Below, one piece after another: positions 9,185-62,890 of a DNA stretch of 64,000 bases (within the stretch, counting starts at the first letter, position 1; every line of letters starts with the position of its first letter). The stretch is taken from the NCBI GenBank assembly GCA_026770705.1, contig JANJGN010000018.1:93620001-93684000 (forward strand), written 5' to 3'. Source of the stretch: Isurus oxyrinchus (taxonomy: Eukaryota). The notes below the pieces were generated by a model. It saw nothing but the letters and a program-made list of their open reading frames with translations, ran no database searches and had not been told where the DNA came from. Both the position numbers and the translations under genes were made by a program.

Positions 9185-9530
9185 TCACATCACTGGCTCT
9201 CTTGAATTGAGGATGACGTTGACTCCAGGTTGCAAGCTTTTGCCATGGGTCTTCATGTAACTGAACAGGCCAAGGTATGGGAAGCGCTTGATGTATCCTG
9301 GAATCTCTCCTTCAACATATATGGGAGGTGGAATATTTGACTGACCAGGTGTGGGTTGATATGTATTTTGTTTTGGCGATAATCACAGAGAGGCTGAGTT
9401 TCTTGTATGCAGGATTGCAGAAGTCGAGATTGGCTTGTAAATCTGATGTGAAGTAGGCAATGACACTGCAGTCATCTGCGAACTGTAAATCATGTATATC
9501 TATGGTGGTCAGTTTAATTGTGGCACAGAG
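9185..9530 (-). mobile_element. RTE-clade LINE fragment nested in the family B LINE
   Basis: ORF 'IHDLQFADDCSVIAYFTSDLQANLD..AYKKLSLSVIIAKTK' is RTE-like RT; 12 bp duplication GACATCAAGGCA at 9173-9184 and 9531-9542. Confidence 0.8.
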
Positions 9531-12100: not shown

Positions 12101-14649
12101 CTTATTTCCTTCAGTTCTGCCCTGTATTTTTTGCATGCAATTTGTTCTTTGCTGTATTATGAACACAGCATTTATCACAAGTTTCCTTGCTGCTGAAGTG
12201 GGCATATGTGGACATCGGATTAGAAATGTAGGCCCTTGTCTTCTCAACTCCAAACTGCAAGAGCCTGCTGACACTTGCTCTCCAGGTTTTGACCTCTCAA
12301 CAGAAGATTAACTGGTAAAATACATGGCTGATTGTGGAATAAGGTGTCAGCCTTGATGTTTTTTCCTAATAGTGACCTGTAAAATTTGCTATAAATGCAT
12401 AAGTTCACAAAAATAAGATTCTGTCTGACAATCAGTTTGAAATATCTCAAAACCTGTCACCCAGTAACTCCCACATCATTCATCAGAAACAAGTGGGAAA
12501 CATACTCCAACATGTCCAACAGTTCACATTTATCTGCGTTGAATATCATCTGTCCACTTGCAAAATCTATCTTGATCTTCCTGCTTTGCTTCACTAGATT
12601 TAATTGCATACACTCCCCCATTCTCCACAAGTTCATATCATGTGAATTTGTCCATTTTGCACTGTATATCTGAATCTAAATCACATATTTAGTGAGAAAG
12701 AGTCAAAGGCCCCATCAGCAGTCTTGATATCACTCCAACTCAAGCCCAGGTTTTTCTCTACTAGCAAGCACCTCTTATCAGTAGTTGCCACAAAAGTTTT
12801 TTTTTTAAAAAAGTGGAGCATTACTACAGCAACTGCGTATGAATGCAAGTAAGTTTAGAAGTGGTGGGGTGGTGAGAGGTAGTGGTTGTTGGAAGGCAAT
12901 AGAAATTGTTTTTGTTTTTTCCTCATAACCCTGACAACATTCATTGCCAATCAGACCATTTCCATACATCCATAATTCTGAACCTATTACTGAAACATTT
13001 GTGTTCCCCACGTCCACCATGAAAAACCATTGGTAACTAAAAAGGGAGTAATTTATCTACAAACACCATAGTCCCTGCGGTTTAACATACATATGTTGTT
13101 GCTTGCTTTGACATGGGATATTCTTCCATTGACTGGCTCAAAATATTCCTTTCTTCAATAAAAAGATATAAGTTTTGTGGGCTGCTCCCAATGTGGTCTA
13201 GTCTAGTTACAGGGCCTAGCAGAATAAATCCTGGGCAGGCTCTCTTCCACATGGACCCTTGAGGCAGTAACACAATATTTAGAGCCAATATTAGAAACAA
13301 GACAACATAATCCTCGCAAACTTTTTTTGCCTGCCAAGAGCTGACTTATTTGTTTTTAATTATGATGTACTTGCTTGTGATGATTATTGTTTCCCAGAAA
13401 CCAGCCATTATACCCACTCTTTGAACAGATGTCAGAACTGTCTAATGGTTTTCTTGCCTTCCTGCATATAAATAGGGATATGTACTATCAATAGATTGTC
13501 ACTGGCAGCAGATGCATGGTAATTCCTACCCACTTTTGGGAAAGATGAGCTCTATACCCTTAATTGTGATTGGGCTCCAGTTCACCACAGATCCAAACTA
13601 CAGTGGCTGGAGGCACAGAAAACAACTATGTCTTTTCACTGTCCCTCCAACAAGGGCAAGAGAGAATTGGTGCAAAAAAGGCCAGATGGGGTAGAGGTAC
13701 CAGCTTCCCTTTGTTTTGAAATACAAATGTGAACCAGTTGGATTTTTACAATAATCCAGTACTTCTAAGTGGCAACATTTTTCTGGTGTCAGCCACAATT
13801 TACCAGAATGACTGCATTCTTTGAGCTCGAGCAAAAAGGTTACTGCCACAATGCTACCATATTCTCAGTCACATCTACAACTGGCTAACCATCAGCCTCT
13901 CACATGGCAACACTACAACACACTAGCTAAATGTATCAAAATGATCCTCATTTTAAATCAGCTTGCATTGGAAAGAGGCAAAAAGGCTCAGTGGATAATT
14001 GCATCTGCCAGTGTTGTGCTGAGTTATTCTCACCAGGAAGATCCCATGTTTGGTTCGCTCATCAGGCTGAGCTCCAACAGATTTGAATTCAATATTGCAT
14101 ATGTTAAGACTACATAAAACTTGCAGCATATCCGAGATGTATTTTGTACTAGTGAAGCCAGAGATAGCACTCCAGGAAATCTTGCTCCATAACAAGCCCA
14201 TCTGCCTTGAATTACATTTTTAAGGGTTTATGGTCCAGGTCAGAATTTAAATACTTTAATACTGCTAGTGAGAAGCTGTATACAAGAGCAGCTTCTGGCT
14301 GACAAGTGCCAAAGATGGCTTTCTATCTTAGTTCTTAGTGGATTCTTCACTGCTCCTAGGTCAGGTCTCAACAGTCAGAAGTGGAAAGGGTTTTGGAAGT
14401 AAAAAGAATAAAATACAAACGGATCGATATCTCAGTCAGTGAAACACTTCTGGAAGAAATGAGAAGCAGGGCAGGCAACCCGACCGCTCTTCCACCACAA
14501 ATATTCAATGATAACAGCTATTGTGGGGTAAGAGATCTTTAATTTGGCATTATGACCAGTGAAATAGAACATAATTTTCATTAAAATCATACATTTAATG
14601 TTGGATAAAATATCAGATCTCAGCTTAACATTCTCCAGTCAATTTGTCA

Positions 14650-14990: not shown

Positions 14991-17900
14991 CATGATGGTC
15001 TGCTGACCTAAAGTTAAAACTTTTAAGCACATCACCCAGCTCTGCCCTAATCACTCAATTGGTTAAGTATTTTACCTAGATCGTAATGGAACCACATACA
15101 GCAAGAATGCTTCAAGCTCAATTACTGGTCTATGCTATTAGCTGATCTTCACAATTGACCTCAACCTTCTTGATGGGAAGAAAAAACCAAACATGTTTCA
15201 GTCCTTAAGTGACTCCTGTTTAAAGATGTATGTGTTTTAATGTCACTTGAGGCCAGATTAAACTTAGCTCTAATATTCACAGTTCTTGAATGTCCTGCAG
15301 ATGTCCATTACTTAGGCATATAACAAATGGTTACACTGTCAAAGTGAAAACAGACCCATATTATCAGCTTCAGATTTTGGGGACAGTGCCTTTCACCGAG
15401 AATAGGTCAATGAAAATACAGTTGACTGCTATGTGCTATAAACCATGGGAGGGAACTGTGGAAGGCTGAGTTTTATTTATCTTTCATATTATGAAGTTTA
15501 TGAATTGATGTGTTTTAAAGCTGCTCCAACAGATTAAATATTATGGCTTAAAATGGTGCTGTACAAACACATGTGGGCATTATTCTACCAGCTGAGAAAC
15601 ACACATTTGTAATTCATCCCCCTACTGGTACATTTGTTAGGCATTTTCACACATACTTCACTACCAATTTGTGGCAGGTTGCTGATGAAGCACCAATTGG
15701 AATAGAGATATTGCCAGGCAGGAACAAACAGGATTGTACCTCGGGTCATATGAGGGAGTGTCACTACCAGCTATGGAAATCTTCACATGTCCTTGTCCCT
15801 TTGTCTATTACAAAACTCTGGATCCTTGGCAAACAAAAGGTTCTGGTAGCCAGAGCCCCCATATGTATCAAAAGATAGCACTGTCTCTCCCTCCCAGAGT
15901 CCACCACACCACATCACCCAATTGACAAGCAGTGAAATGTTTAATTGAATAATTTATAAAATATCATAGCTTATATAAACTAAAATGAATTTAATTCACA
16001 AATCTTTAAACAAAAACCTCTGTAGGATTACTGGCAGTTTTATGATGCTGTGGAAAATGAAGAGATTGATCACTTCTTAAAATTGGAACAGAAAGAGCAA
16101 CATGGCTGTGAACTTTCAACAGACTCCAATCAAAATTTTACTGCAGAAAGCTGATTCCACGGATGCAGTGCTGCTCATTTGTGATCCTTCCCTGCTATAT
16201 ATTTTGAGAATTGTGATAAAACAGTGTATTTTAAAATCACAAAAGTTGGTCTTTAGCTGTAACTGATAACCAGTTAAAAACTGCAGCAATTGTTTTTTAA
16301 AAATGTAGAAAGGTAGTAAAGTTCTGATGGCAGCACTGGACTCTCAAAAGATTTAAAATGCAGATCCTCTTGCTTTTTTTTTTTACAATGGTGCTCCTAA
16401 ATTCTGATGTTTGAGTTGCAGACCAGGCAGTGAGGGAGAAAAAAAGACATACATTAAGGTAAGGCACAAAGAAGTCCATGACTCAGAAAATCCTGTCTTT
16501 CAGTTTGGAGAAGAGCAATTGACTTACATTTATAAAGTGACTTTAAAGTAGTAAAATAGGCCAAGGTGCTTTGCAGGAGCACAACCAGGCAAACATTAGC
16601 ATCAAACTTAAACAGGAATCAGGGCAGCTGGCCAAATGCTTGATCAATGAGGTGGTAAGTTTTAAGCAATGTCTTAAAAAGAGACAGAGGGGTGAAGAGG
16701 TTTGGAGAGGACTTTACAGAGCTTAGACAGCTGGAGCATGGCCATCGATGGAGCAGCAAAGGAAATGGGGATGCACAAGAGGCCAGAGTTGGAGGAACAA
16801 AGCTCTGAGGGCTGCAGGAGCCCTCCCAAACAGCAAGTTTAAGAACGGCTTTATTTAGAGTCACATGCAAGGAATAATGTGCATTTTACCAGTAGCAATA
16901 GCAGTTGGGCTGCGATTCTGGAGTGCTTGTTAAACACTGGTACCATCTTTAGTAGGATTGGCGATGTCTTAGGGAGACAGTATGCCAATAATCCATTAAG
17001 AAAGAAGAATGGGAAGCTCAATTACTAAGATTATTGAGAAATAAGAGGCTTTGGTTCTCTGTTTTCTCATGCATAAATGATACAGCAGCTTCAGATGAGA
17101 CAAAGATGTGTGGGTAAACTCAAAAGCTCCTGTCCGAGTTGTGCCACTCTGCAATTAGCTTTGCAAGAAAGGCATTGCAATGCCTGTCTTCACTGCTGAA
17201 AAGTTTTGCAGTTGCTGTATTTGCATGGTAGATATTAACTATACTCATGACATGAAGTTGAATTTTGCCCATTTCCATCTAAGTACCCTTTTAATGACGT
17301 GACGTGTCAATTACTGCCACTAAACCTCCCTGGCACTGAAAATTAACTTTTACAAATGTAGAGTCTCATTCCTTCAAGTTTTAATCTTGCTGGAGATTTT
17401 TTAAAAGTGAAATTTAAACCATTTTTTACTTTTCCTTCCCATTTCTCTCTCTCAATTCTATTGTTCTTTGCCTCTCTGTACCCAATTTGGCACTAAATTC
17501 ATCCGCTTTAAATTACAACTCCTTCCTAGTCCTTGCACAGTTTATTTCACAGTTCTCCAATCGGATTCGTTAGGTGATGCACAGTTGCTTTCCCTGTTCA
17601 CTCAAGTTCCAGAAGCCCAGTTTCCCTCACTGCACTATCAACTCTCACTTTCAGCATCTAACATGTAAAAAAAAATTAATTAAATTTAAATGTGCAAGGG
17701 CATGTCTCGCTAATGGCAGACACTGGTAGATGTCTTGCAACAGCAACTAATATCTTTGAACACAGATAATAGAGCTTTAAGAACTAAATCTACAAGTTAG
17801 ATCTTGTGGACAAACAGAAATATCAGCTATGATTTTCAACCTGATTTGCAGAAAAAAACCATAAAAAAGGAGAAAAATGCATCTTCCTTAAAACTGATTA

Positions 17901-19030: not shown

Positions 19031-20601
19031 GGTGGGGGGGTGGAATTTTCCTCAGGAGTTCATAGGTTTCATTCCCACGATATGCTAAAGTAAACAGCCT
19101 CTATCACGGCAGCACTGGTTTGCTACAATTAGCCTCATCACCTTAGGTCAACGAATGGAAAGATCTACCAGTGTGTTCTCGCATCCAACTGCTATCCAGA
19201 GACTCTTATTTGTATACTTGATATTGCCTGAAGACCAGAACGGGCACCGCTGTGATAATCTCTATGTAAAATATTCTGACCACATTTACATATTAGGAAC
19301 TGTTACTACAATTTAATAGGCCTTGGGACATACCATGTTAATTTAGATTACAGAAAATGTGTGCTTTACCGGCAGCGAAAGCCAAATTTCACACGTGGTA
19401 CGGAATGTATTATAAATGGATATTTGAGTTGCTTTAAATGGATCGCGACGTGAAATTGGAACAGGGATAGCTGGAAGAAAGAGTGTATGGAGGGGCTAAT
19501 TGAAATTTGAAACTGAATGATCAAAATGTTAAATGTCCATCATTTTTCCTTTGCTACAATTTGCATAGAGAGAATATTACCTGAATCCAGAGATCGAGCC
19601 TTTTGTCACCAAGTGGATGGTCATCTGAAAACATCCTGTAGGTCAGGATCTCTTCACACAAGCACACTGCCCCATAATGACCCCAGTGAAGTAAGGCTAT
19701 TGAAAAATGCTGACATCTGTAACTTGTTATGCAAGGATTTTTAAAAAAACACACATACAAAGACACACTGATGGGTACAACATAAATATAATTGTTGGGT
19801 GCAAGGGAATTCATAAAGCTTTGAGTGATCACATTTTTTTGGTGATAGCACTGAAGGAACAGGACTTTATTATTACAGCTGTTAGACATGGGCAGTAAAG
19901 AGTATTTTGGCGAAATTCCAGAAGAAGCTAACGGGGTAGAATCATTAACTGTGCGAGGGTTGTTCCACCAATTCAAATTAGCAGGTCTTCCAGCCCTATA
20001 CCTCCCACAAGGAGCACACTTTTAATACTGCACCTTTTAGTTACATTCCATTATGGAAAGAGGTAATGTAATGTGGTCTACTTTCTATACATAGCAAATG
20101 GTACTGAGATTCAATAAGGGCCAAAAATCCTATCCATGCTGTAAGTTCCTAAAAAACACCGAAAGCAACCAAATTCTTTCAGTTGTGACTATTTAAAGAA
20201 TGTAGTCATAGCACTGGATGTCTCTTGCTTTTAATTTGCTTTTAAAAGATAGTGGCTACATTCCCATCAATTTTAGAAGGCCTCACAGGTCATTATTTTG
20301 AAAATTGAGATGAAGAGCCATTTGTCCCGGAATCATGGAGAAAACACGAGAGACATGAGGTGTTGCATTACAGGGCTAATTCACGTTTGCGTTGCTGCTG
20401 TTCAGGATCCTTTACATTTAGAGACTAAACTGACACAAAAAGGCACAAGAGACACAAATCAAGGGACAATTCTAACTTTCACTGCTGGGCAGTAAATGCA
20501 GTCTTGTGGATGCAACCCACTTGATTTCCTTTTCTATTTAACTTCAACGCAATGGACAAGTAAGCAAGAGACACAACCAGTGGCTGATCCACAATGCCAC
20601 A

Positions 20602-20607
20602 TTTATT
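20602..20607 (-). terminator. Candidate distal poly(A) signal of the SH3BGR-family gene
   Basis: AATAAA on the minus strand followed by GT-rich 'ggttgtgtctcttgc'; a second AATAAA lies at 21094-21099. Confidence 0.55.
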
Positions 20608-21652
20608 GTCCAGCAATGAAAGTTAAAACCAAGTTTAAACAATATCCACCATGACTCTGTCACCTTTAATACTAGACAAGGGGAAAACAAGTAAGCAACA
20701 CAGGCAACCTTGGGGATTCAAATTTACACACTTATCCTTCCTTTAATGTAAACTGACAAAAAAAAAACTTTTGGTAAGAATATAGGGTGAGACATTTACC
20801 TCATATACTGAAAGGAGTCCTTTTCTCAAATAAGCAGACTGACATTTACAACTCCTGCATGAGTATCACTACAGTACTACATGCTAAACACCATGAAACA
20901 GAGAACAGCCCAGCTGTCTGCTTTAAGACAGAATGTGCACCTGATAATCTAGACCCAGAATAAACACTATCCAAATCTGGGGATGGACATTTGAATGCCT
21001 AAGAAAATAAGAGATGAAAATTTTCCATTGGATGGTGCAAGTTTAACCTAACTATTTTCTTCTGTTTAAAAAGTTGATGTAACACCAAAATGCTTTATTA
21101 AAATACATCATTAAGAGGAAAAGGAAAATAAGGAGATTTTTAAAAAAGAACTTCACTGCATCGTTTATCAGTAATTACTCTCTCCAACATTCACAGCAAT
21201 TGATTTTCAGTGAAGGGAACATTGGCAAAAATTAATAGGAAACAGAGGCAACTTGGCATAATTAAGGAGGAGGCAAAACTTTGCAAAAATTGGCAGTTCT
21301 TATCCTGGAGGCAAACTTTGATCTAAGGCTTTCACTGGCAGCTCCAAGGACAAAAGTTTCGGGTGTTAAAGAATTTAACAATGCCATGTTGTCACGAGTG
21401 CTTAGATCAGCTTCCAAAAACCTAATTTTGCTTCTACAAAGCTCACTGGCTCCAAGCATAACAGCAGCTAATCATCTACAAACAGAAAGAAAAGGTTGAT
21501 TGCGGCTCAATATTTGCAAAAATAGGAGTAGATGTTTGAAGGCTACTCCTCTGTTGAAATCCATGTTTTCTTTTAATTGAAGAACTTCTTGGGCAGTGCC
21601 AATGTTTTTACTGAGGTTATTATGGGTGGTGCAATGTTCCTGGGTCAAGTTC

Positions 21653-21688
21653 TTACACTTGCTTTTGCTCCGCAAGGGCTTCTGCTTC
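21653..21688 (-). CDS. SH3BGR: Terminal exon: coding (EAEALAEQKQV*) in the short isoform, 3' UTR in the long isoform
   Basis: Strong acceptor (long C/T tract ending ttcag), phase 0; the peptide resembles the human SH3BGRL C-terminus EAEVQAKQQA*. Confidence 0.8.
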   Translation of the reverse strand, partial: EAEALAEQKQV

Positions 21689-22982
21689 CTGAAAAAAAAG
21701 AGGGAAAAGCAGAAAGAGGGGATTAATGAAAGGCAACTACTGAATCACAGAAATCAGTGTAGTTTCTCCCAAGGTCAACGTGCTGTGCAATAAACTCTTC
21801 AATAAATGTGAAATGTATACTCCCAGTAAAGCTGGAATTCAAATCTAATCTAACAGAGAGCAGTTCATAATTTGAGAGCAAACGCTTTTGGTTGTTTTAC
21901 ATAGCAACAGTAGTGGCCATTTTTAGATTTCACATTTAATTAGATCCAACTATCCAGCCTAGCTGACATATTGCTTGGCTCTGGGTGCAGTGGGAAGGAT
22001 AAAAAGGAGGCAACATCCTCTGACCAGATGCTCACTCCAAGTAAAAAGTTCCTCATTGGTGTTAGATCACTGTTATAAGGCCACAAAAATTTCTAGTCTT
22101 CAAAGTTGGAAGTAAAATAACATTTAATGAGATGTTGCATTTCACACAAAGGTTTTACATTATTCATTTTAACTTTCTTGTGGTGACCGAGTTTAAACAG
22201 TGTCACTTTTCACAGTAAAATACATCGTTGAGAGGAAATCATAAGATTTTTGGCTTATGGTGATAAAAAGTGACATTGAATAATTTACCTAAAAGGCAAA
22301 AGACTTCAGCCACAAGTCAATAGTGACAGCTTCTCAAGACAGATTAAAACAGTCATTAAGCAGATAAGGCGGCTGAAGAACAAAGTTCTGTTATTCAGTA
22401 CTAAAAACCTACTTCACTGAAACCTTGGAAATGAAACTGAGAAAAGAAGACAACATTTTTCAAATTAATGTACAAACTTCAGTCAGTTGAGTGCAAACGT
22501 AATATGCAATACAAGCGTAACACACCATGCAAGGCCCAATTTAATGCTTTACACAGTAAGAGGTTCTTCAAATATCAAAGTGATGTAAATGAAGAGAAAT
22601 AGACGTACAGCCAAACAGCCATGTGCAATTAATTCCAAGTGGTCCATTCCAGTAGACTAGTCCAGATATGATGCAACTTAATGTAAATAGCTCACCTACA
22701 GTACAACTTTCAGAATAAAATAGAATTCTTCAAATGGAGGATGCTTGGGGAAATTATATATTTTACATATTATTACTGACTAATCAGATCATTATTCATG
22801 TTATAGTGATATACCACCCACTGAGGGTAGTTATGTCTCAAGCCCAAAAAGCAGCAGTGTCAACAGGCACGAAGTTAATTCTGTATGCTTAGTCTGAATC
22901 AGGATTAGGTGGTCAGGTGCGCATTCTCTCTCATTACCTTAAACCCTTGCAGATGAAATCATATAAAAGCAAAATCATATTT

Positions 22983-23009
22983 TTAAGATTCATCCACTTC
23001 ATCCTCATC
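22983..23009 (-). CDS. SH3BGR: Stop-containing acidic exon DEDEVDES* (exon continues as UTR to 22938)
   Basis: Acceptor 'ctttttctttatttcttattgattag'; resembles the SH3BGR ending EDEDS; donor AAG|GTAATG at 22937. Confidence 0.8.
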   Translation of the reverse strand, partial: DEDEVDES

Positions 23010-23529
23010 CTAATCAATAAGAAATAAAGAAAAAGAGAAGGAAAATGAGCACAAGCAAACAGATTGTAGTAAAACTAGTGGAACATAAAACAATAACAAA
23101 GGAGAGCATAGTTACCAACACTATCCATTCATATCAGCTGAGTCACTTAGATGTTTAGGCAAAGATTCAACAATTTTTATAATCTAATGATTCGCTATCT
23201 TTTTAAAATTTAGACTCACCTCCCTGCAAAAATTTTAGCCATTTAAAATAAGCTTTTTAAAAAACACAAAAGAATTGATGGATCTTTCTGAATGCAAGGT
23301 TACACCATCTAAAAAGTTATCAAGCCACCTTTAAAGTTAATGAAATTTCCATTTGTCATAAACTAATAATTATTCAACTTGTAATGTGGAAAATATTTTA
23401 GTGAATAATCAGGTCACACAAAGGTTTAGCACATCAAATTAGCTTGTTTAGGTGCATTTACAACCAGTCACTCTTAGGCATGGTGAGAAAGAGGCTGCTC
23501 ATATATAAACTGCTCTTATATTAAAGTAC

Positions 23530-23559
23530 CTCAGTCACTGGTTCTTCTTCATCCTCCTC
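23530..23559 (-). CDS. SH3BGR: 30 nt microexon EEDEEEPVTE
   Basis: 'ttttttttaatatgtttag' | GAGGAGGATGAAGAAGAACCAGTGACTGAG | GTACTT, phase 0-0. Confidence 0.8.
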
Positions 23560-25475
23560 CTAAACATATTAAAAAAAACGAGTGGGTGTGGAGAGAAAGA
23601 GAGAAAGGAGGGACAAAGCTTAATGAAAAAGGGAAAAATAGCAATATAGAAGAAAAAAATGCAGAAAACATCCCACAACAGAACCAAAGGACTGAAGAGG
23701 TGAAGAATAGTGGTGAAGTAGTAATGGATGAAGCTGTAGCAAAAGGAAATAATGGATGTGGTTAGAATATTTGGAAATTCCAATTATTCTCATTAGGAAG
23801 AGACTGATACCTCAAACACCTACTTCCATCTTTTTTTCCCCAAAGGCATGTTCAACCTTTCCAAGTTGAAAACAGGGAAGGGCAGGACTGAGCATGGATG
23901 AGTGTTTACAATGTTCAATTGTTCAAATTTCCTTTTGTTTTTCAGACTGGATGGTTTATTGGCAACGGCTCATGTTTTAATTTTGAAGAGCCGTTATTCA
24001 GGGATGTTTAGAGCTCAGTCACGCTATCAACTCATTAAGTTTGTTAGTTGCCAATGTGGAAAAGAGTTACCCAATAATCAACAGCAGGCAATCCCTAGCT
24101 ACCCCAGAATTGTAAAACCAATAATTGCTATCCAAGTACATTTATGCCATTTTTTTGTGATACTGGCAGTGGGGGCCACTAATGGGGGTGCAGGATCCAT
24201 TATTGTAATAGAAAAGTTTAAGATATTTGTAGTTTAAAGTTTGATTTATATATAATTTTCTCCCTCTCTCAAATAGTGCAAACTGTCTGCTTAGATATGG
24301 TTCCAAACCCAGCTAGTATCCTTTCCTTCGTGACCATGATTCATGTGTGACTCTTGCCAATAGGTGTTGACACATTGTTCAAGCAAGACAGGCATCAGAG
24401 CAGAGTCTGAATGTGCCATTTGTTGATATGTACTTTGTGGGATTTATTGGTGAGCAATTAAAAAGAACCTTATATGATTTTTCTCTCATCAGTTCAGGAT
24501 TGCTGAGCCCAACTCCAGCAACGTAACAGCCAACTGCCTGAGATCAGCTGAAATCAAACCTCAATCTTTGCTAGTCTGTACAGAGTAGCAGTTAAATGTA
24601 TATGGTTGTGGAATCAGAGGATTTAAAATTATACTTCTAATTCTAAACTCGCTCCATTGTAGAAACCTGCTTACATACCCTAGGATCCTGCTGGGGTAAA
24701 AGGAGTTGATGATGGACATTTCAAAGGATTTTCCTTTGTAATCAATGACTGGTCTCTTTACTCATTGTTGACATGTTCAATGGCCAACTCAGGAATGAAA
24801 ATTTAGGATTTGGAATAAACATCCTTCCTACTAAGCCAAAAATAAAGTATGCTCTTATTCCTCCTGCATCTTCGCACTGTTGAAATGAAGACTCTGTAGT
24901 GATCTATTCCAACTCTCTTTTGGAGTGGCTCAGTCTTTTCTTCCTGAGGCAACCGAATACCCAAGTTTGTCATCACCTGCCATCTACTCCATGATTTACC
25001 TCAACTTCTCGCCTGTTATCAACCTTAGCAACAGTCAGCACCATGAACCCTAGTCTATCCAGTAGGTAAAGCCCATCACAAGCATTAAGGCTTATTATTT
25101 AAGTGAACTGCCTGCACAAAAACTGTTTTCAAAAGTATACTTCATGCGAATCCATGCAACAATGTGATTGTCAGACTGTTGATTGTAAATACTCTTTCCC
25201 TTAAAGAAGTAATCATAATTTTGCTTATATCCAAGACACTTGTGACTAGAAGAGCCATTTATAGACATGGCCCAATCCCACAAATGCACCAAATTTCTCG
25301 ACAGCCTGAATGTTATCTGGCAACAGTCAATTCCAGTTCAAAAAAGTCAATAATTGGTCAATGAAGAATATGACAATGAAATGGAAACAACGAAATGGAA
25401 ACACTACAAAAAAAAAGGATGATTAGTTAGCATGAGATGACAAAGACTGATGAGCCATTGTAACAGATTATCTAC

Positions 25476-25502
25476 CTCAGTTACAGGCTGCTCTTCTTCA
25501 TC
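25476..25502 (-). CDS. SH3BGR: 27 nt microexon DEEEQPVTE
   Basis: 'ttcatttccttgtttag' | GATGAAGAAGAGCAGCCTGTAACTGAG | GTAGAT, phase 0-0. Confidence 0.8.
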
Positions 25503-25758
25503 CTAAACAAGGAAATGAAATTATAAAACAAAAGGAGTTGGCTAATTACAAATAAAAAGTGTGAAATATGTTGGTTAGTTATAATGAGAAATCGGCAAAA
25601 TGATATGTAATCTGTACAAAACTAATGAGAACATCTTCAAGCAGTTTGAATCTGAAATGCCAGGACATGCAGGAAAACTGCAATTGTTACAAAAGATTAT
25701 CAATTAGTTTCGGAATCACCAATGGTTTTTAGATGCCTAAAGAATCTATTGATCGAAC

Positions 25759-25788
25759 CTCTGTAACTGGCTCCACTTCTTCTTTTTC
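25759..25788 (-). CDS. SH3BGR: 30 nt microexon EKEEVEPVTE
   Basis: Long T-rich tract ending 'ttttactag' | GAAAAAGAAGAAGTGGAGCCAGTTACAGAG | GTTCGA, phase 0-0. Confidence 0.75.
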
Positions 25789-26313
25789 CTAGTAAAATTA
25801 TAAATAAAAACACAAGAAAAAAAAACAAGGATGATATGGGCAAGTTAAGTGTAAAAGCACACAACCTCTTAAGAACTTTCTGACCTGCTCTAACTCCCAC
25901 TATGGCTCAACATCTACTCCATTCATCTAATTATTCTTTTTCCTGTCAACATTATTTACTTAGAAAAGGCCAAATACACACGCATTTTTTTGTTAAACGT
26001 GTGCGGCAGATACAAGTTACTGCTGGTGCAAAGCTCATGGGAATACAGTTGGGAGTGGGGAGTGAGGAGGGAACACCATGGTGATTCTAAAATGCGAAGC
26101 CAGAAAAGAAGTGGGAGGAGAATGCAATCTAGGTCAAGAAAATTTTGAACTGGGGAGAGAAGATAAAAAAAGTTCCCCAACTCTACCCAAACAATAATTT
26201 GTATTGGAAGTGTTTCCCCCTTACATTTTACTATCAATATATTACAGCATCACACACATTTATAATTTGTTCCAATAAATCCTTAGGAAAAAAAAACACA
26301 CTACTGGCCCAAC

Positions 26314-26343
26314 CTTTGATTCTGGCTGTTCCTCTTCTTTTGC
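26314..26343 (-). CDS. SH3BGR: 30 nt microexon AKEEEQPESK
   Basis: 'ctgtttgttttcatgactttgccag' | GCAAAAGAAGAGGAACAGCCAGAATCAAAG | GTTGGG, phase 0-0. Confidence 0.7.
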
Positions 26344-28521
26344 CTGGCAAAGTCATGAAAACAAACAGATGAGACAGAAGAGTGGGAGACAGGCAAACCT
26401 CTGCATTCTTGTAATTAAACCAACGCTTTAAGAACCGATTGCTCACTTGAGACGATCATGGTTATTTCTATTGAATGGAAAGAGTAATTTCCCGTGACAT
26501 TGCTCAGAGGTAGTCTGGGATCTAGGAACATGCTTAAAGTAGTTAGCTGTTAACATAACCCATTCCTGTGGGACCCCTGCTCAGGTATTCCCTGTGGGGA
26601 ACTGATCGAAGCCCTGGACCCCCTCTGTGGAACTAACTCCCTGACTTTTCCCCTTCATCCCTCCCCACCTGACCACATCTACCCTTCTTGCTTCACCTTT
26701 TAAGAGCTTTATTAAAGCCCACCTTTGCAATGAACCTTATGGTCACCTCTCCTAACTCTTCCACCATGGCCTAACGTCCACAGCCTTTTTACCTTTCTCT
26801 CTCGTAAAGCATCTAAAAATGTTTTTCTACATAAATACAAGTTGTTGTTTTACAAATGCTGCAGTACAAGCACTACACACTAAGTACCGCTCTTTCCCCC
26901 TCATTCGCCTTCAGGACTAGTGTCCTTAGTGAAGGAAATTGGAATGAACAAAACAAAGAAACTAAAGTAGAAAACATGTATTTTTTAATACAATTTCAAT
27001 AACAAGAGGTTTCAAATATGTTAGAAGTTTAGAAGAAGCATATTTGTTGAGTAGAAAGATGAACACTATAAATATTAACATGTTAGATTAATGGATAATG
27101 TGTTAGTCATGTGCCCAAAAGGGTAAAGTATTCATTCCACACCATCTTAAAAGGTAAGAGTCAATACAAACACACAAACTAATGCAATATGGCAGACAGA
27201 GCAACTCTTTGATACTGCTACAGTGTCTCAAAAGCTTGGGACTGAGGCAGTGCAGGATTTCAGAGCTTGCTCTATTTCAGGTTATGGATGGTTTGGTTCA
27301 GGTCAAGCCAGGTTGGGTGGGGTTAAGGGTCATTCACTCATGGGAGTAGACTGGCACATAAGCAGTAAAGGGGATACAAGTCAGGTGACATACCACACCA
27401 ATGGAGTGCCGAGCCAAATTGTCTAGGCAAGTTCTTTATAATTTCACTCAATTAAAATTGATGTATGGCACATTCTAAAAATGTCCAGTTTTCAGACAAA
27501 TGTAGTTTTTGGACAGCCAGATTTGAGACACAGTAACTGTACAGTGGAAGCCTACACTCAACCTGCCACCATTATGGCCCTTCTACACATTACATACTAC
27601 GATTGTGATTGAAAAGAGTTATGTGTTGATCCTAGAACTCTAACACTAAACATATTCATTTGGTTAAATATTAGCACTTGGTTCTTTTATTGGAGAGAGA
27701 TCTTGCTTTTGTGTTTTCTCACTAACATGCAATGATGCAGTCTGGTCTTTTCCAGGGGTGTTAAGAGAAGCGAAACATGGACGAACAAGCCAGTGTGTTT
27801 TCGGCATGTTAAATCCTTTTTAACTCTTCACTTGATTTAAGGAGCAAGAAAGTGAAGTTGACAAGCTATAACAATTCCCTCTGACAATACAGTTACAAGA
27901 ATGCTCCAAAGTTATCCAGGCATTTTGGGCAATACAGATCAAATTATACTAACTGCATTTGGAAGCAGTCAAAGACAGCAAATTTACCATCGCCCAATAT
28001 AATGACCAGAACTACCCACCAGCCCCCCACCCGAGTATGGCATCCTAGGAGCTTTTCAGTGAATGAGAAATCTACATAAGGAGCTTGGCAAGTTCAATAC
28101 TTTTGCCAATAAACCAGGTTCACAACTCCAGAAAAAACATAGCATCAAAAGCATTATGCTCCAGAAGTACAACTTACTTTAAATATTATATTCAGGTTAA
28201 CTTACATTCCTGATTAGAGAAAGAACAATATTCTATAACACTATCTCCCAGTCTTACAAATCTTACCTCAACTTTAAAATTAAAAATCAATGTTCATACT
28301 TCCTCCCAATCCTATTTAAAATGCCTAATCTGATCAACTGGATAGCTGTAATTAAACTGATTGCTGGCTTGAACTTTAGGTGGTTATTAAGTGATCTGTG
28401 AGTTATTAGTGTGCCTTGTTAATTGAAATGGTTTAAAGTAAGGATTAACACGGAGAACAAAATGGTTAAGCCACTCAAATGAAAAGAAAGGACCGTTTAC
28501 AGGTTTGTGAAATTCTCTTAC

Positions 28522-28593
28522 AGCCTCTGCTGGTTCAATAGCTTGATGAACAGATTCCTCAATTTTCTTAGCTTCATTCTCACCAATGTTTTC
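28522..28593 (-). CDS. SH3BGR: 72 nt acidic exon ENIGENEAKKIEESVHQAIEPAEA
   Basis: tgtgcag acceptor, GTAAGA donor, phase 0-0, Glu-rich. Confidence 0.75.
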
Positions 28594-30067
28594 CTGCACA
28601 CATCAACATCAATGTTCAAAGGAAAGCAAAGTGCAAAAGAAAAAATAATCTACCAGGTTCTAGAAGTTTGGATAAAAAAAAAACAAAACTAGAAGCTGGA
28701 AATTCAAAACAAAACAGAGAATGCTGTAAACACTCAGCAATAGCGGAGGAGAAAACAGATATGACATTTCATCAGTACTGGAAGCTATTACTAATGAACA
28801 CCATTTCAAAAAGGAACAAAACCAAATGGATGAAAATTGGTGCACATACAGAATATAAAGTGGTTGAGTGGAAAAAACAGGAGATGGTTAAATGTCGGAG
28901 GTGATATTAGCATGAACACATATTATCTCTTCCTTTGATGTAAGGAGCAAAAAGAAATCTCATCCTATTACTCTCTTCTCTCGTGCTATTACTACATTCC
29001 CACAAGACAACAATCGATGTTGGATCAATTATTAATTTTAAATCTGAGATCGACAGATTATTGGTAACCAAAATAAGTACAAAGCACAAAGTTAGGCTGC
29101 ATATCAGCCATGAGCTCACTGATTGGAAAAATAGGCTATAGGAGCTAAATGGTCTACAGGTGCTGTGTGCTGATGTGAGCATGAGACACTGGCTTACCTT
29201 CCCTTCACAGATGCACCCTGGGACACAAGTGCTCCAGTATTTTCCATTTTTGTTTCTAGCAGTTATGATGCAGTTTGACAAAAGGTTGAAAGCTAACAGA
29301 ATTGATATTCAGGAATGGTTATCAGATAGTAATTTTATCAAGGGGCTTAGATACGAGTTTCAAGTTAAAAGGATGAGAGATGTAGCACTATTACCTGAAC
29401 CCGCAAACCAAACTTACTACCTTGAAGTTACTGCATTGAAATGATTGCATACATGTATTTTATGCCAATTGAAAGTGAAATGTAAGTGATAGAAATGGCA
29501 ACAGAAGTCACATTTCTTCAATAAATGTTATGGTCCACCTTTGGCATGTTGTAACGGTCTACAAATAAAAGTTCTACCAAAAGGTCCTTTGATGGCAGCT
29601 ACAAAGTATTTAAGTTACAAAACGCCTGAAGCAATTCAAGCTACTATACAAAATAGTATACTGCACTATACAATCAATATTTTGTGGTCCACAAAATATT
29701 GAGATTAGAATTGAACAGTCCAGTACAATACTTTAATGTTGAACTGTATTAATGCAGAACTAATTTTTGACAATCCTTCACTTCATTTACTACTGCTCCC
29801 AAGGAGCTCGCTCTCTTTACAGCTGTTAATTGTTTGTCTATGAGACATCCGTTGTAGCTTAAACCTCCTTACGTCAAAAAAGAAATCAAACTTGCATTAT
29901 TGTAAATTTATATTGACCCAGGACTGTGCTTGCACAACTAGATGACTTCCACCCACACACAAAATTATGTCAAAGTGAAAAACAGAATTAAAGAGTTGTA
30001 AAAAAAGCAAGCACAAAAACATACACCACACGCACACAAAAAGCAACGCAAGCAAATACATAATTAC

Positions 30068-30163
30068 ATTTATATCTGTTGACTGTTCAAAATGATTATG
30101 CAACATTTCAATATTTTCTTCAAGCTGATCTTCTGCAGCTATATGCAAATGCTGCTCATTGCC
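30068..30163 (-). CDS. SH3BGR: 96 nt exon GNEQHLHIAAEDQLEENIEMLHNHFEQSTDIN
   Basis: 'tcttgatttttcactttggtag' acceptor, GTAATT donor, phase 0-0, open frame. Confidence 0.65.
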
Positions 30164-31569
30164 CTACCAAAGTGAAAAATCAAGATAAGAGAAAACAGTT
30201 GCATCATGCGAAGATGTTGCAGACAAGATGAATAATTGAGACAGAGAGCAGGAGAGCAGTATTCTTTTCTGTTAACCAAGCTAAAAATGATTAGAGACAG
30301 AAAAAAATGCACATAGCATCCTGGCCTTTTCTGTATTCCAGTTTTTACAAATGTCTATGATTAGGGTAATTGAAAATTTGGTTTTACTGATTATCACTGA
30401 TAATTCTACATTTCTTTTGTGGCATGGTGATTTGGTTAAATCCAGTTTCCCCAATTTGAAATACACAAGCTTTCTTAATTTCCCAGCATTTTCTTTCCAA
30501 AAATTGCAGCTGGAGATTGCACAGGATTTACAAACCAGAAAGGATAATCCCTGAACTTACTCACGTTGATATTTGTCCGGTGTGTAAGCAATAATCCTAT
30601 CCTATGTACCTATTGTTTCCAAATTCCTATACTTCTCTTTCCTTTGATCACCCATCTTAAAAGTTCATATTGTCTCTATTCTAGGAGTGTACCCATAGCC
30701 TCAGAAGCCACAAAGGTCTTTCATGTTCTCTCCTGAATCTTCTACATTTAAATTTTTCATCTCTTATACACATTCCCATTTTAGACACCTCAATCAACGG
30801 AAGGGATCCATTTCTACCTACTTTATCCCTGCATAAATTTTAAACACCTGCAACAAGTCACCCTTTAATCATCTCTGATGGGGAAAAACTATTGATGCGA
30901 TCTTGTAGCTCAGAAGCATTCAGCATATTGTGCCAATGTCATCCCTCTGAAAGAACTATCCAATCAGCCCCATTTCCTTATTCTTTCCCCACAGACCTGC
31001 AAGTTTTTCTTGTTCAAGAATACATACAATTCTCTTCTGAAAGCTGCTGGTGAATTTGCTTCCAGAAGGCTTTTGGGTAGTGCATTCCAGATCAGAACTT
31101 GCTGCGTAAAATAAAATTTACATTTCCCCTCTGAGCTTTTTTGCTGATCATTTTATGCTGGTATCCTCTGGTTGCCAACACACCTGAGTGGAAACAATTT
31201 CTCCTTCATAAGCTTGAACACCCCCATTAAATGATCCTTTCAGCTCTGCTCCAAAACAACCCCACCTTCTCTAGTCTCTACAGGTCAGAAATTCCTCACC
31301 CCTGGTACATCTCCACTGCACTCTGCAAGTTCTTGATACCTTTCTGAAAATTAAGTGGTCAGAATTGGACATAATACAAGTGGAGACCCAACCAGTGACT
31401 CATAGAAAAGGGTTAGCATAACTTTCGTTCTTTTTTAATCATTTCCCTTTTTGTAATACCAAAGAACAACAGTGATCAGCTCTTAATCAAAGATCTCGGA
31501 AAGCTTCTCTTTTTAGCAGCTTTATTAACTTGCCCTGCCACCTTCGAACATTGGTGTATGTAAATTTCC

Positions 31570-32105
31570 AGGGACAGAACATAACCCTCGATGGGCAGAC
31601 AGGTGCCCTACCCGACTGAGCATAAAATAATGCGTGATGACGTCGGGCGAGCGTCCCGACATCGCTGCGCACTCACGCGATATTTCAGTCAGTGGGCACG
31701 CGCCGGAATCTGCAGCACGCCCGCCGACAATTAAAAGGCCTATTAAGGCCATTAAAATTATAATTGAAAAGAATTTTTTGCTGCCTGTCCAACCTTACCA
31801 GAAGTGGAGACCCAACCAGTGACTCACAGAAAAGGGTTAGCATAACTTTTGTTCTTTTTTAATCATTTCCCTTTTTGTAATACCAAAGAACAACAGTGAT
31901 CAGCTCTTAATCAAAGATCTCGTCTAGCTTCTCTTTTTAGCTTCTCTTTTGTGGTGCAGGCAGGCAAAAAGGCCAAGCAGCCTTTGCAATTTTTAGGAAA
32001 TCTCATCCACGGGCGGGATGAGGTTTCCAACAGCAAGTAAAAATAAAATTAAAATGTTAACATTTTGTTAATAACATGTCCTCCCTGCTCATGTGACAGA
32101 GACAA
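31570..32105. mobile_element. GC-rich non-autonomous DNA-transposon-like element interrupted by a 140 bp copy of flanking DNA
   Basis: Shares blocks with 18340-19030; 31802-31941 duplicates 31378-31517. Confidence 0.6.
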
Positions 32106-34180
32106 CTCACCTAATTGCACCCCTCGTAACCCTGCAAATTGTTTATCTTCTCTTTTGAAGGCCTCGCTTGAACCTGCCTGCACCACACCCTCAGGCAAGG
32201 CATTCCAGGTCCTAAATATCGGCTGCATAAAAAACTTTTGCCTCATGTCACCATTGTTTCTTTTGCCAATCACCCACCGTAAATATGTGCCCTCCAATTC
32301 TCAATCCTTCGGCCAATGGGAACAGTTTCACCCCATTTACTCCATCCAGGCTCTCATGATTTTGAGCACCTCTATCAAATCTCTTCTCCAAGGACAATAA
32401 CCCCAACTTTTCAAACCTATCCATGTAACGGAAGCTTATCATCCCTAGAACCACCTAGTGAATCTTTTCCACATTATAACACTTCCTAAAACGTGGCGCC
32501 CAGAACTGGGCACAATACTCTGGTTGAGGCTGAAGCAGTATTTTACACAGATTTCCTTATTCTTGTACTCTTTGCTCCTATTTGTAAAGCCCAGGATCCT
32601 ATATGCTTTATAAACCATTTTCTCAACCTTCCCTGACACCTTTAATTACTTGTGCACATATAAGCCCAGATGCCTCTGCTCCTGCATCCTCTTTAGAACT
32701 GTACCCTTGTATTTATTGTCTTTCCTTGTTCTTCTTACCAAAATGAAGAACTTCACACTTCTCTGCATTAACTTTCATCTGCAATTCCACCAGCCCATCT
32801 CCTCTAAGTTTATCACTATTGTCCTCACAGTTCACAATGCTTCCAAGTTTTGTGTCATTGCAAACTTTGAAATTGTGCCCTCAATTACACTCAAGTCTAA
32901 CTCATGAATACACACCAAGAAAAGCAGGGGTCCTTACACTGACCACTGGGGAGCCCCACTGTATACTTTGCTTCAGTTCAAAAAGCACCATTCATGACTA
33001 CTGTTTCTTGTGTCTCAGCCAATTTCATATCCATGCTACCACTGTCCCTTTCATCCCATGGATTCTAACTGTGCTGACAAGCCAGTTATGTGACACTTTA
33101 TCAAACTTCTTTTGGAAGACCATGCACACTTGTTCACTTTGGCAGGAATAATGGAGAAGTGGTATATTATTTAAATGCGGAGAGATTGCAGAATTTGATG
33201 GTATGGGGAGATTTGGGGGTCCTGGTACATGAATCACAAAGTTAATATGCAGGTACAACAAGTTATTAGGAATGTTAATGGAATATTGTTGTTTATTGCA
33301 AGGGGAATGGAATATAAAAGCAGGAAAAGTTTTACTGCAGCTGTACAGGGAATTGGTGAGACCACATCTGGAATACTGTGTAAAGTTTTAGTCTCCTTAT
33401 TTGAAAAAAAAATAGACAATTGCATTAGCAGCTCAGAGAAGGTTCACTCAACTCATTCCTGGGATGAAGGGGTTGGTCTTATGAGAAAGGTTGAACAGGT
33501 TGGGCCGATACCCATTGGAGTTTAGAAGAATGAGAGGTGGTCTTATTGAAGCATCAGATCCTGAGGGGACTTGATTGGGTGGATATTGGAAGGATGTTTC
33601 TCTTGCGGAAGAGACTAAAACTAGGGGACATAATTTAAGAATAAGATGTCGCCCTTTAAGACTGTGATAAGGAGAAAGTTTTCTTCTCAGAGGGTCATTA
33701 GTACGTGGAATTCCCTTCCCCAGAAGGCAGTGGAGGCTGGGTCTGTGAATTTATTCAAGCTGAGTTAGATTTTTGATCGAAGAGGGAGTCAAGGGGTTAT
33801 GGGGGCAGACAGGAAAGTAGAGTTGAAACCAGATCATTCACAATCTTATTGTATGGTGGAGCAGGCTTGACGGGCCAAATGGCCTACTCCTACCTTCCTA
33901 TATCAACCACATTACCCTCATCAACCCTCTCTATTGCCTCATCAAAAAAACTCAAGTGAGTTAGACATAAATTGCTCAAAAAATTCATGTTGGTTTTCCT
34001 TAATTATTCCACACTTGGTGAAGCAACTGTTAATTTTGTCCCAGATTATTGTTTCTAAAAGCTTTCCCACTACTAAGGGAAACTGACTGCCCTGTAACTG
34101 CTGGGCTCATCTTTACACACTTTTTTGAACAAGGTTTTAACATTTGCAATTCTTCAGTCTTCTGCCACCACCCTGTATCT
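32105..34180. mobile_element. Nested CR1 fragments: minus-strand copy (32105-33125, resuming 33895-34180) interrupted by a plus-strand 3' copy (33125-33895)
   Basis: Minus ORFs 'FQKKFDKVSHNWLV..HGMKGTVVAWI' and 'RQKFFMQPIFRTWNALPE'; plus ORF 'QVQQVIRNVNGILLFIARGMEYKS'. Confidence 0.8.
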
Positions 34181-34585
34181 AAACAGTAACATATCAGCTC
34201 CGCAATACAAATAACAACATGGTTACAACATGATCATTATGAGAAAACTGATGTTTGTAAAAACTGGAAACTTGAACTGCAACATTGCTTCAGTTGGACA
34301 AGTTCACAGTTCAAATAACGCCTCCATTTTGCCCTATCAATTGTCCCATATAGTTAGTAGTTGTAAAACATGTCGTAAACAGATCCAAATTCTGTCCTAT
34401 TACTATGTGCCAACCAAGAAGCAATTATGCAGCTCCTGAACAGAGTTCTAACCAGAAAATGATCTGCATTGCGTACTTCAAAAGCACCAAAGAAACACAC
34501 TGACAGTTGGATAAGTGTTAATTCAAATGAGGAAGTGGAGCAAGACAGAAAACATAAAAGAGAAAGAAATTTAAGGCTTAATTAC

Positions 34586-34648
34586 TAAGTCTCCTTTATC
34601 ACTTTCTGGAACTTCACCGTTCTGGATGATTGTAGCCTGATGTGCTTC
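34586..34648 (-). CDS. SH3BGR: 63 nt exon EAHQATIIQNGEVPESDKGDL
   Basis: Strong acceptor 'tttcctttgtttgcttttgctccgctacag', GTAATT donor, phase 0-0. Confidence 0.75.
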
Positions 34649-36109
34649 CTGTAGCGGAGCAAAAGCAAACAAAGGAAACCCAGAATTGTATATAAATTAT
34701 TAACTAGCACACAAGAGGAAAATATTTCATTGAACTCCCCCGTCTCAGATTCAGTGTAATAAAAACGACAAAACTGACATTTAGTAAGTTTGAGTGTTGG
34801 TCATCGTCCATTAAGAACTTAAGTCTTCATAAGGTTCAGAAACCAATTTTTTTGAAATTGCCCCTCAAGTTTTAGATTAGACCAAAAAAAAGCATATCAA
34901 TGAAGTAGCATTTATCTTAAGCTATGTACAAAATACCTACAACAGGACTCAAAAGCCCAACTCTTCCAATACACTGTATCTGAAATATGATTATAATGTG
35001 CAAGGTAAACATGAAAGCAAAAAATAAACATGGCATTATAGAAGTCATTTATCTATCTTACACATTGCAAAAATAGCATTCTTACATATGCTGTTAACAG
35101 CAACATGCAAGAGCTTGCAATGTGTAATCCAACATTTTGACCTGAATTAATTGCTAAAACTCTTTCTAGTTACTACATTCAAGAAATTGATTAAAACAAC
35201 ATGTGCCTTGTGAAGATAGTAACATTACTCTCATTTCTGGAATCTAGGCTCAAATGCAGTTCAGACTAATGGGATGAAAGTGACTTTTGCTTGCTACCAA
35301 GTAAACTGTATTGGGTAATTCTCAACTTAGTTCCTGGTGGTTGTTGGCCCAGTGTATGTACTGGCACCTTGCTGGCAATCTCACTCAGGCAGGTCATAAA
35401 AATGACTGGCACTCTAAATAGAAAAGTGTTATACTGGTGCAGAAGATGGCTCTCTTCTGAGGCTGGGCTTAAGGTGGAGATAGAAAAAGCTTACTTTTGC
35501 ATCCAACCACCCTGTCACCAAATGGAAGTAATCAATGCTCACACCAGGTTCCCACAACTAAAATAGCATTGCTTCTCCTAGCCCTCAAATCACACATGAT
35601 GAACAGAGAAAGTGCATGGGGCAAAAAAAAAAAAACCAGATTAAAGAAAACAATCTTTTTTTTCCTCCTACAAATTGGACAAATAAAAACATAAAACTTT
35701 GGTCTCCATTTTTAAGAACATATAAATGAATGAGTGGTACAGTGCACTAGATCTCTGGCCCCTGGAGTCATAATGCAGGGGGAATGCCAATTTCATTCCA
35801 GAAACCTGTACATCATTCTGTAGTGTGTCTACTGTCGATTTTATAGAGAAATATCTGATATTCGCCCTTTTTAATTTCCCCTGCTCCAACCATTTCACAG
35901 GTTGACTTTTCATTTGTTTATAGCCTGGGAGTAGGGTTCCCACTGGTTGGAAAGCACAGAAATCCTTTATAAGTAAAAGTGCATAACTCTCAAAAAATAG
36001 ATTTAAAGCTTTTGGGCTGGGAGTTTCCATTAGGTTGTGTTATTTTAATTCAGTACAATTTGCCCAAAATAGGCCAACGGTATCAACATTGCTGAGAAAA
36101 CACCAACAA

Positions 36110-36670
36110 TAAATTGGGAGCCACTGATAACCAGAACTGTACTTGACCAGCCACATCAACAATGGCGACAGGAGCAGGGCAGAAATTGACTATTTTGCTT
36201 CCTGATCCTGCAAGCTTTAACCACATTCTACAAGGTCCAAGTCACGAGTGTGATGGAATACTCATCATTCACCTGGACGGCTAAAGCCTCAATAACACTC
36301 ATGAAATTTAGCGCACTCCAGAACAGAGAAGTTAATTTTGATTGGTGTCCCTACCATCAGATTCAATATTCACCCCCTCCCTCTATCAATGGCACACTGT
36401 GGCTACAAAATATACAATTTAGAAGTTACAATGCAGCAACTTACCAAGCCCACCTTTACCATAAGAACATATCCAAGCTCCCTTCCAGGCAACCACACCA
36501 ACCTAATCTGTACACAAATTGCACCTTTCACCATAGTTGAATCAAAATCCTAGAAATTCCTACTCCACAATTGTAGGAGCAACTGTGCATCATGCAGTAA
36601 CTCTAGTAAAAGGCCAAACACCACAAACTAAGGATCATCAATAAATTTAGATTTGCTAGCATTTTCCACA
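36110..36670 (+). mobile_element. Old family B LINE 3' fragment
   Basis: ORF 'MMEYSSFTWT..' matches 'VMEYTPLTWM' in the copy at 40700-43290. Confidence 0.65.
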
Positions 36671-37017
36671 TCTGGAGAGCAAGCATAAAAAGCCAGCTCT
36701 GTGCTTAGGGTGAGACCACCAGTTAGTACCCAGAGATACAAAAAAAAGATGCTGCAGACTTGAACACACCAAGTACTTAGCAGAATACTCAAACTAAATC
36801 CACAATAGAACCCTTGGAGCTGGCAGAGATTAAAATGTCATCCCATCAGTCTGTTTAGTTCTCACCTCAAGTCTCAGGGGTGCAAGGAGATGTACTAACC
36901 CACTTTCTTCCCAATCCACTCAGGAAGGATTATTTTAATACTTAAAATGTTATAATTTTACTAACATTAAAAATTTAAACTTACTTTATCTAGAGATGAA
37001 TGCGTATGGTGTTATCA

Positions 37018-37158
<141 letters not shown>

Positions 37159-37883
37159 CTACAGTGTCAAGATAATCAATGACTTAAAAATCTGGAACAT
37201 GTTTGCATTGCATCAACAAAGAGGCATTTAGATAACACTGGAAATGTCAATAAAAGATCATTACAATAAGATCTGATGTGCAAGTCTCAGGAAGAAACCA
37301 GAAAATCATTCTTCATTTAAAAAAAAATTAGTCTTTTGTTCACATTTTTTCTTCACAATAATGCCCAATTTGATGGACCCAGATGAATGACACCTAATAA
37401 CAGCAAATAACAAAGTCCCTATATCTTTGCAAAGTAGGCCTAAATTTAGAGGTTTCAGAGGCAATTGCCTGGAGTAAGTTTTAATGTCAGGCTTGCCAGG
37501 GGAGGCAGGAAGTATGCTTGAAATGGCATGGCTCCATTACACAAGTCCTTGCTTTTTACTAAAAATTGGGTGGTGTCAAAATTGCTTCTGGTAATCAAGC
37601 AGGTTTCAATGCTAAAGGTTCAATAGCAGCCTGCATCAGTTGGATGAATGGTAATAAAGTATTACAAATATGCTATAGCCAAGTAAGAGGGCATGCATGC
37701 AGTAATGATAAAGTCATAATACTACTACAATTATAACAATAATTAACCACACCAAACTCATTTGGAGCTTAGGAATTAAAAATAATCAGAGGGATGTGAC
37801 ATGGTATATAATAGGCTTGCACACATCATCTCACGACCAACTATCCTCTAGCTCAGAAATAATTGTTAACAGAAATGCAATCA

Positions 37884-38159
<276 letters not shown>

Positions 38160-62845: not shown

Positions 62846-62890
62846 CGCGGTGGAACCGGACTGGCTTGCAATAAAGACTTTGATAACCAT
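62846..62890 (-). CDS. SH3BGR: SH3BGR-family exon 1 coding part, MVIKVFIASQSGSTA
   Basis: ATG in strong Kozak context (atcATGG), 45 nt, GCG|GTAAGT donor; matches the family N-terminus MVI(K/R)V(F/Y). Confidence 0.95.

Follow-up and report, generated by a model that had tools for sequence, protein, structure and literature searches.

In titin, repeated in-frame cassette exons encode the disordered PEVK and polyE sequence, rich in proline, glutamate and valine, which forms an elastic array under load and is far larger than the free protein end, with four units of 9-10 residues, that is dealt with here. Small alternative exons (exons 4-8) set how acidic fast troponin T's variable N-terminal region is, according to the accessible part of PMC8559874. 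In vertebrate SH3BGR, described as heart- and skeletal-muscle-specific (PMC12827327), a glutamate-rich C-terminal extension is present (PMC12827327, PMC5424795), and the human gene adjoins LCA5L and WRB/GET1 (PMC12147916); these statements, too, follow the accessible parts of the papers. The related SH3BGRL proteins are actin pointed-end cappers whose C-terminal stretch varies among isoforms and may contact tropomodulin, and SH3BGR itself lies outside the capping analysis in the accessible text of that study (PMC12827327).

We analyzed a window of 64,000 nt of genomic DNA from the shark Isurus oxyrinchus, in which an earlier note had described four short segments as an array of duplicated acidic microexons. 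The gene that carries them has a PF04908 head, a Glu-rich tail ending in DES, and LCA5L and WRB/GET1 as neighbours in common with vertebrate SH3BGR, but while one tail is described in the accessible parts of PMC12827327 and PMC5424795, the shark tail is assembled from eight cassette exons, and an SH3BGRL-like end can take its place. It resembles SH3BGRL and the TPEC cappers in its fold, in a homologous short terminal exon and in 12 of the 13 Zone-1 contact residues, which are unchanged when compared by eye with the list in PMC12827327. SH3BGRL, however, has no acidic extension, and capping is a property of SH3BGRL that we infer for SH3BGR from sequence, a structure model and analogy. The likeness to troponin T drawn in the earlier note is a fair analogy, with no homology shown: in both cases small alternative exons set the acidity of a terminal segment in a thin-filament-associated muscle protein, but the variable end is N-terminal in fast troponin T and C-terminal in SH3BGR, and regulated, functional combinations are established for the former whereas a switch of the whole block dominates the data for the latter. 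None of the papers listed on SH3BGR splicing and on shark microexons describes the array, although Xenopus and cloning work may cover splice forms; these exact exons are present in RefSeq-type models of many sharks and rays. The exons, with the evidence for each, are as follows.

62846..62890 (-): SH3BGR exon 1, coding part, 15 codons; a loose end of an RNA contig at 38148 leads into it
37962..38147 (-): SH3BGR exon 2, 186 nt, thioredoxin-fold core; PF04908 and identity with great white, joint 37157-37961
37078..37158 (-): SH3BGR exon 3, 81 nt, which completes the folded domain and is donor to both the tail block and the short form; joint 21687-37077 in runs X1, X2 and X3
34586..34648 (-): tail cassette exon A, 63 nt, phase 0; joint 30162-34585 in X2, X3 and X10, loose ends in X2, X6 and X9, orthologous isoforms
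30068..30163 (-): tail cassette exon B, 96 nt, phase 0; joint 28592-30067
28522..28593 (-): tail cassette exon C, 72 nt, phase 0; contig joints
26888..26924 (-): dead microexon m0, 37 nt with an in-frame stop; shuffle test, bypassed by joint 26342-28521
26314..26343 (-): microexon m1, AKEEEQPESK, 30 nt, net charge -2; flanking RNA joints
25759..25788 (-): microexon m2, EKEEVEPVTE, 30 nt, net charge -4; flanking RNA joints
25476..25502 (-): microexon m3, DEEEQPVTE, 27 nt, net charge -5; flanking RNA joints
23530..23559 (-): microexon m4, EEDEEEPVTE, 30 nt, net charge -7; flanking RNA joints
22938..23009 (-): stop-carrying cassette exon, 72 nt, DEDEVDES followed by a stop; joints 23008-23529 and 21687-22937
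19500..21688 (-): terminal exon (to at least 19500); record 1 of X1, and 7 of 8 residues shared with the last exon of the SH3BGRL paralog

The four segments were confirmed in position, peptide, codons and flanking pyrimidine-rich AG and GT, and lie on the minus strand, which the earlier note had not given. They are very short, internal, GT-AG spliced and frame-preserving (phase 0). Microexons are defined by a strict limit of 27 nt or by looser limits of 30 or 51 nt; m3 alone falls within the strict limit and all four within the looser ones. The designation as a PVTE repeat holds for three of them, the fourth (26314-26343) ending in PESK. As had been noticed, PVTE is written in different synonymous codons, with third positions of P, V and T differing in 7 of 9 pairwise comparisons and first or second positions in none, and the intron flanks are dissimilar, since in 20 comparisons over 120 nt, taken around the four microexons and the stop exon, no pair exceeded shuffles at p<0.05 (the smallest p was 0.076). 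The proposal of an old duplication with selection on the peptide agrees well with synonymous sites near saturation, flanks that cannot be aligned and the identity of DEEEQPVTE in chimaera. A scan for AG, an acidic exon of 21-36 nt ending in P[VAL][TS]E, and GT gave three distinct exons on the minus strand (five raw matches, 23530-23559 being scored three times through alternative AGs); the plus strand gave none, and neither did any of 30 shuffles. Exon candidates at 58503, 35652 and elsewhere from a first scan were rejected for want of a joint or an orthologue. The m4 exon opens with tandem GAG GAG, giving possible alternative acceptors 3 bases apart (23559, 23556 and 23553 on the minus strand), and no alternative is seen in the joints listed. 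Twelve motif tests gave no clear splicing-regulator signal around the microexons: TGTG downstream reached p 0.015, uncorrected, and the upstream pyrimidine excess is trivial.

To judge from homology and gene order, the host of the four microexons, which the earlier note had missed, is SH3BGR, read from the minus strand. An SH3BGR-family domain is encoded by the frames at 62846-62890, 37962-38147 and 37078-37158, and a Pfam search with exon 2 found PF04908 with an E-value of 8.7e-28 (96.8 bits against a curated cut-off of 21). The PLPPQIF motif is present, and exons 1-3 carry a single Cys, consistent with a thioredoxin fold without CXXC. Exon 2 matches great white SH3BGR at 100% and is the same as in SH3BGR-named proteins of Carcharodon, Cetorhinus, Scyliorhinus and rays, and the nearest relatives of the tail sequence are those of Carcharodon and Cetorhinus. 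An exon-2 tree of 62 columns, with two rows lacking the pattern left out, placed five rows all named SH3BGR nearest and left the paralogs unseparated, so that orthology leans on synteny, identity and the tail. A lebercilin-family gene lies at C18:93.71 Mb (+), about 24 kb upstream of SH3BGR, and the sole WRB-family match in the genome at C18:93.78 Mb (-), about 97 kb upstream; both neighbours are oriented as expected for SH3BGR in WRB-LCA5L-SH3BGR synteny. The Glu-rich C-terminal extension comprises 124 residues with a net charge of about -41 and is spliced in RNA contigs.

Other members of the family occur in the window and on other contigs. Three open exons of an SH3BGRL3-like gene (6697-6745, 14360-14528 and 16026-16155, plus strand; the first assigned by pattern match only) lie tail to tail with SH3BGR, and contig C6 has a like convergent layout, beside lebercilin, of an SH3BGRL2-like gene and, at a distance of 94 kb, a divergent copy of the family, the two layouts suggesting an ancient gene pair. 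A further copy at C9:53035551-53035670 has the exon 2-3 junction without an intron and a truncated start, and probably represents a processed pseudogene derived from the divergent copy on C6. Basking shark models use an alternative first exon whose peptide is readable in intron 1 in the window (56429 region, minus strand), with GTG where Met is. Retrotransposon reverse-transcriptase-like frames and fragments were seen at 2971-5600 and 50500-51460, the longest frame being of 593 aa at 3324-5105, with fragments at 8700-10500, 40900-43400 and 44700-46400.

Transcript evidence was drawn from 7 of 22 listed runs, as assembled contigs whose RNA status is guessed and from which rare variants are dropped; strand, expression level and rare skips are not readable from them. 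Runs X2, X3 and X10 represent one organism, about 1% from the window, and X6 and X9 another, in which 388 nt of the terminal exon match the window without a difference. X9 is labelled 'probably DNA', yet its contig is spliced at seven GT-AG introns. The earlier note had staked its proposal on the presence of the four segments in transcripts, and all five flanking GT-AG joints (23008-23529, 23558-25475, 25501-25758, 25787-26313 and 26342-28521) were found in 5 of 7 runs, namely X2, X3, X10, X6 and X9. Three of the five were found in X1, at low depth, and none in X12, which is almost uncovered (2 records). The modular acidic tail that had been postulated is thus borne out by spliced phase-0 acidic exons. 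The array exceeds the four segments of the earlier note, with three longer cassette exons (A, B and C) upstream of them, the stop exon downstream and the dead m0 as a fifth microexon. In the five runs covering the block the four microexons are joined in series, and a single contig of 1442 nt (record 19 of X9) runs through exons B and C, m1-m4 and the stop exon into the terminal exon.

The main switch, missed by the earlier note, is between the whole block of eight phase-0 cassette exons that sit between exon 3 and the terminal exon (A, B, C, m1-m4 and the stop exon) and the short, SH3BGRL-like terminal exon. Both splice forms exist. The short form, in which exon 3 is joined directly to the terminal exon and translation ends with EAEALAEQKQV and a stop, has 115 aa and a net charge of -4; the long form with all eight block exons has 228 aa and a net charge of -43, of which m1-m4 contribute 39 aa and -18, and uses the terminal exon as 3' UTR. 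The joint that skips the whole block (21687-37077) is present in X1, X2 and X3, and the corresponding contig is dominant in X1 (492.8 vs 11-46). No exon 3-to-A joint was found among the RNA contig joints listed. In X10 the block-skip joint is missing among the joints listed, and this is not used as evidence on tissue because the exon 2-3 joint is missing there as well. Stops less than 50-55 nt from the last junction usually escape nonsense-mediated decay, and because the stop of the long form lies 45 nt 5' of the last junction, inside this distance, the long form is expected to avoid it.

On contig C9 the SH3BGRL paralog has a terminal exon identical to that of the window at 7 of 8 residues, and no acidic small-exon candidate was found in its 23.6-kb last intron. 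Because the terminal exons are homologous and the matching intron of the paralog gave no acidic cassette, the tail block was likely inserted into the ancestral last intron, the ancestral ending being kept as an alternative. Exon A (window 34586-34648) starts, in gar, bowfin, bichir and sturgeon, with a peptide like that of the short terminal exon (window 21656-21688), and the sequences hint at an origin of the tail block by duplication of this exon. In chimaera, three SH3BGR entries (P0406, P0410 and P0411) have a proline-rich terminal peptide in place of the SH3BGRL-like end.

The earlier note had made conservation in related species decisive for its proposal, and orthologous peptides were found in 18 of 18 cartilaginous-fish groups. 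Microexons m3 and m4 each occur in 17 of these groups and m1 in 9, with none among 7 ray groups, where assignment of a unit to m1 or m2 is ambiguous; the survey took cluster representatives only, which makes absences weak, and the exon C column was left out because its pattern also matches exon B. Exon B is frequently missing in isoforms of relatives, and an alternative donor of exon C at 28501 would add 7 codons, this longer version occurring only in Scyliorhinus and Mustelus models. Modules of the PVTE type are carried by sharks, rays and chimaera, by sturgeon, bowfin and gar, and by coelacanth; squamates carry a related copy. Of the four PVTE units in chimaera one is identical to m3; there are five or more units in sturgeon, three in coelacanth and two or three in bowfin and gar, and the single related unit of squamates, 10 residues long, differs between isoforms. 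A 10-residue unit at the corresponding position distinguishes isoforms in deer and in pocket gopher, and this is the only variable unit in the mammalian isoforms examined. Teleost units have diverged, and teleosts and mammals mostly lack the PVTE letters but have an acidic tail. Exon boundaries beyond the window are deduced from isoform differences. As units range from chimaera to sturgeon, coelacanth, squamates and mammals, the array is, by these comparisons, a feature of jawed vertebrates with gains and losses rather than an invention of sharks. Some catshark and ray models are mixed, combining tail exons with the short terminal peptide, and the switch between block and short end is therefore not strictly binary.

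A further exon of 12 codons between C and m1 is used in rays, sevengill shark and sawshark. At 26888-26924 (-) in the window, m0 has an AG, the matching start, an in-frame stop and 37 nt to the GT; its score was reached by 0 of 1000 shuffles when anchored and by 2 of 1000 when unanchored, and the RNA contigs skip it by way of joint 26342-28521. Judged by this resemblance, m0 is a dead orthologue of the 12-codon exon.

With regard to function, the reading that we regard as moderately probable is that the switch swaps the C-terminus of a pointed-end capping domain, the muscle form being the acidic-tailed one, with skipping of single microexons secondary. The thioredoxin-fold head would cap pointed ends as SH3BGRL proteins do, the long form would be that of striated muscle and the short form that of other tissues. 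The AlphaFold model of the great white protein has a confident thioredoxin fold in the head (pLDDT 82-96 as means of 10-residue blocks, residues 1-110) and no secondary structure in the tail (39-58 beyond residue 120), and it matches SH3BGRL (1u6t, E 3e-15) and the pointed-end-bound SH3BGRL2 (8iah_Z). The disordered tail may take the place of the C-terminal part through which SH3BGRL touches actin and possibly tropomodulin, and the swap would weaken or retune capping. Leaving out a single microexon would finely adjust the tail, each one accounting for about 10 residues and 2-7 charges.

A broader version, which we offer as speculation, has SH3BGR as a capper with two modes, a short form and a muscle form whose exon-by-exon 'charge dial' would tune cooperation with tropomodulin and the length or turnover of thin filaments; it would date from the first jawed vertebrates, have been expanded and pruned by lineage, and be a target of repeated splicing shifts between benthic and pelagic Arctic charr. 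The charr gene, given as 'SH3BGRL', is probably sh3bgr, because databases use that '-like' name for an acidic-tailed charr protein with many isoforms.

It is possible, though we would not expect it, that each microexon is separately regulated, muscle types or stages setting the length and charge of the tail through distinct combinations, as happens in fast troponin T. Among 15 isoforms modelled for great white, 8 of the 16 on/off patterns occur and each microexon is skipped alone at least once; the S. canicula models have 7 patterns in 13 isoforms, and chimaera entries carry 0, 1, 3 or 4 PVTE units. Database isoforms, however, are automatic predictions in which any supported junction is listed, without inclusion levels. 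The depth step in X2 from 151.6 to 106.9 between m2 and m1 hints at a branch, as does the depth in X6 at exon B (37.5 vs 206.6), but no single-microexon skip joint among m1-m4 was found among the joints listed in 7 runs. For charr, the identity of the gene is itself deduced and the direction of change differed between lakes. The combinatorial tuning suggested in the earlier note thus finds single skips in isoform models of relatives, while the shark contigs show m1-m4 included together, and for this reason it is unproven in Isurus oxyrinchus.

Another explanation, unlikely in our judgement, is that the PVTE end is a short linear motif whose copy number matters, each PVTE and the acidic exon after it creating a T-x-x-E site of casein kinase 2 type or a repeated docking site. 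The three PVTE junctions are the only S/T-x-x-D/E matches in the whole tail, and the letters are kept from chimaera to sturgeon and coelacanth, despite saturated synonymous sites and an acidic part of the units that tolerates 3 amino-acid changes per pair. The casein kinase 2 consensus, on the other hand, is weak in any acidic tail, PVTE is eroded in teleosts and mammals, and we know of no partner of the motif.

It is about equally doubtful that the array reflects near-neutral birth and death, in which the tail need only be long and acidic, small phase-0 purine-rich exons, partly under enhancer constraint, duplicate and decay freely, and skipping is tolerated noise. The dead m0, a copy number ranging from 1 in squamates to 5 or more in sturgeon, a purine content of 70-80% in the microexons and the predicted disorder of the tail are consistent with this. 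Enhancer constraint, however, acts at the nucleotide level, yet synonymous sites changed while P, V and T stayed, and m3 is letter-identical between this shark and chimaera. Separate regulation, a linear motif and near-neutral turnover overlap as explanations. That the segments are chance intronic matches, or their joints products of a processed copy elsewhere, could draw only on the guessed RNA status of the runs and is refuted by exact-boundary GT-AG joints in two organisms and 4-5 studies, by the orthologous peptides in all 18 groups and by the 7 family matches in the genome, none of which is an intronless SH3BGR copy.

Arrays of acidic cassette exons are known from muscle proteins and this one is already in database models, and the surprise is accordingly modest. 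SH3BGR is a heart and muscle gene of the Down-syndrome region, and the job of its acidic tail is not known. Its paralogs have lately been shown to cap actin pointed ends, the C-terminus being the part that distinguishes them. The shark gene naturally yields spliced variants in which the head is identical and the tail ranges from absent to full length, and because the variants share that head the role of the tail is directly testable.
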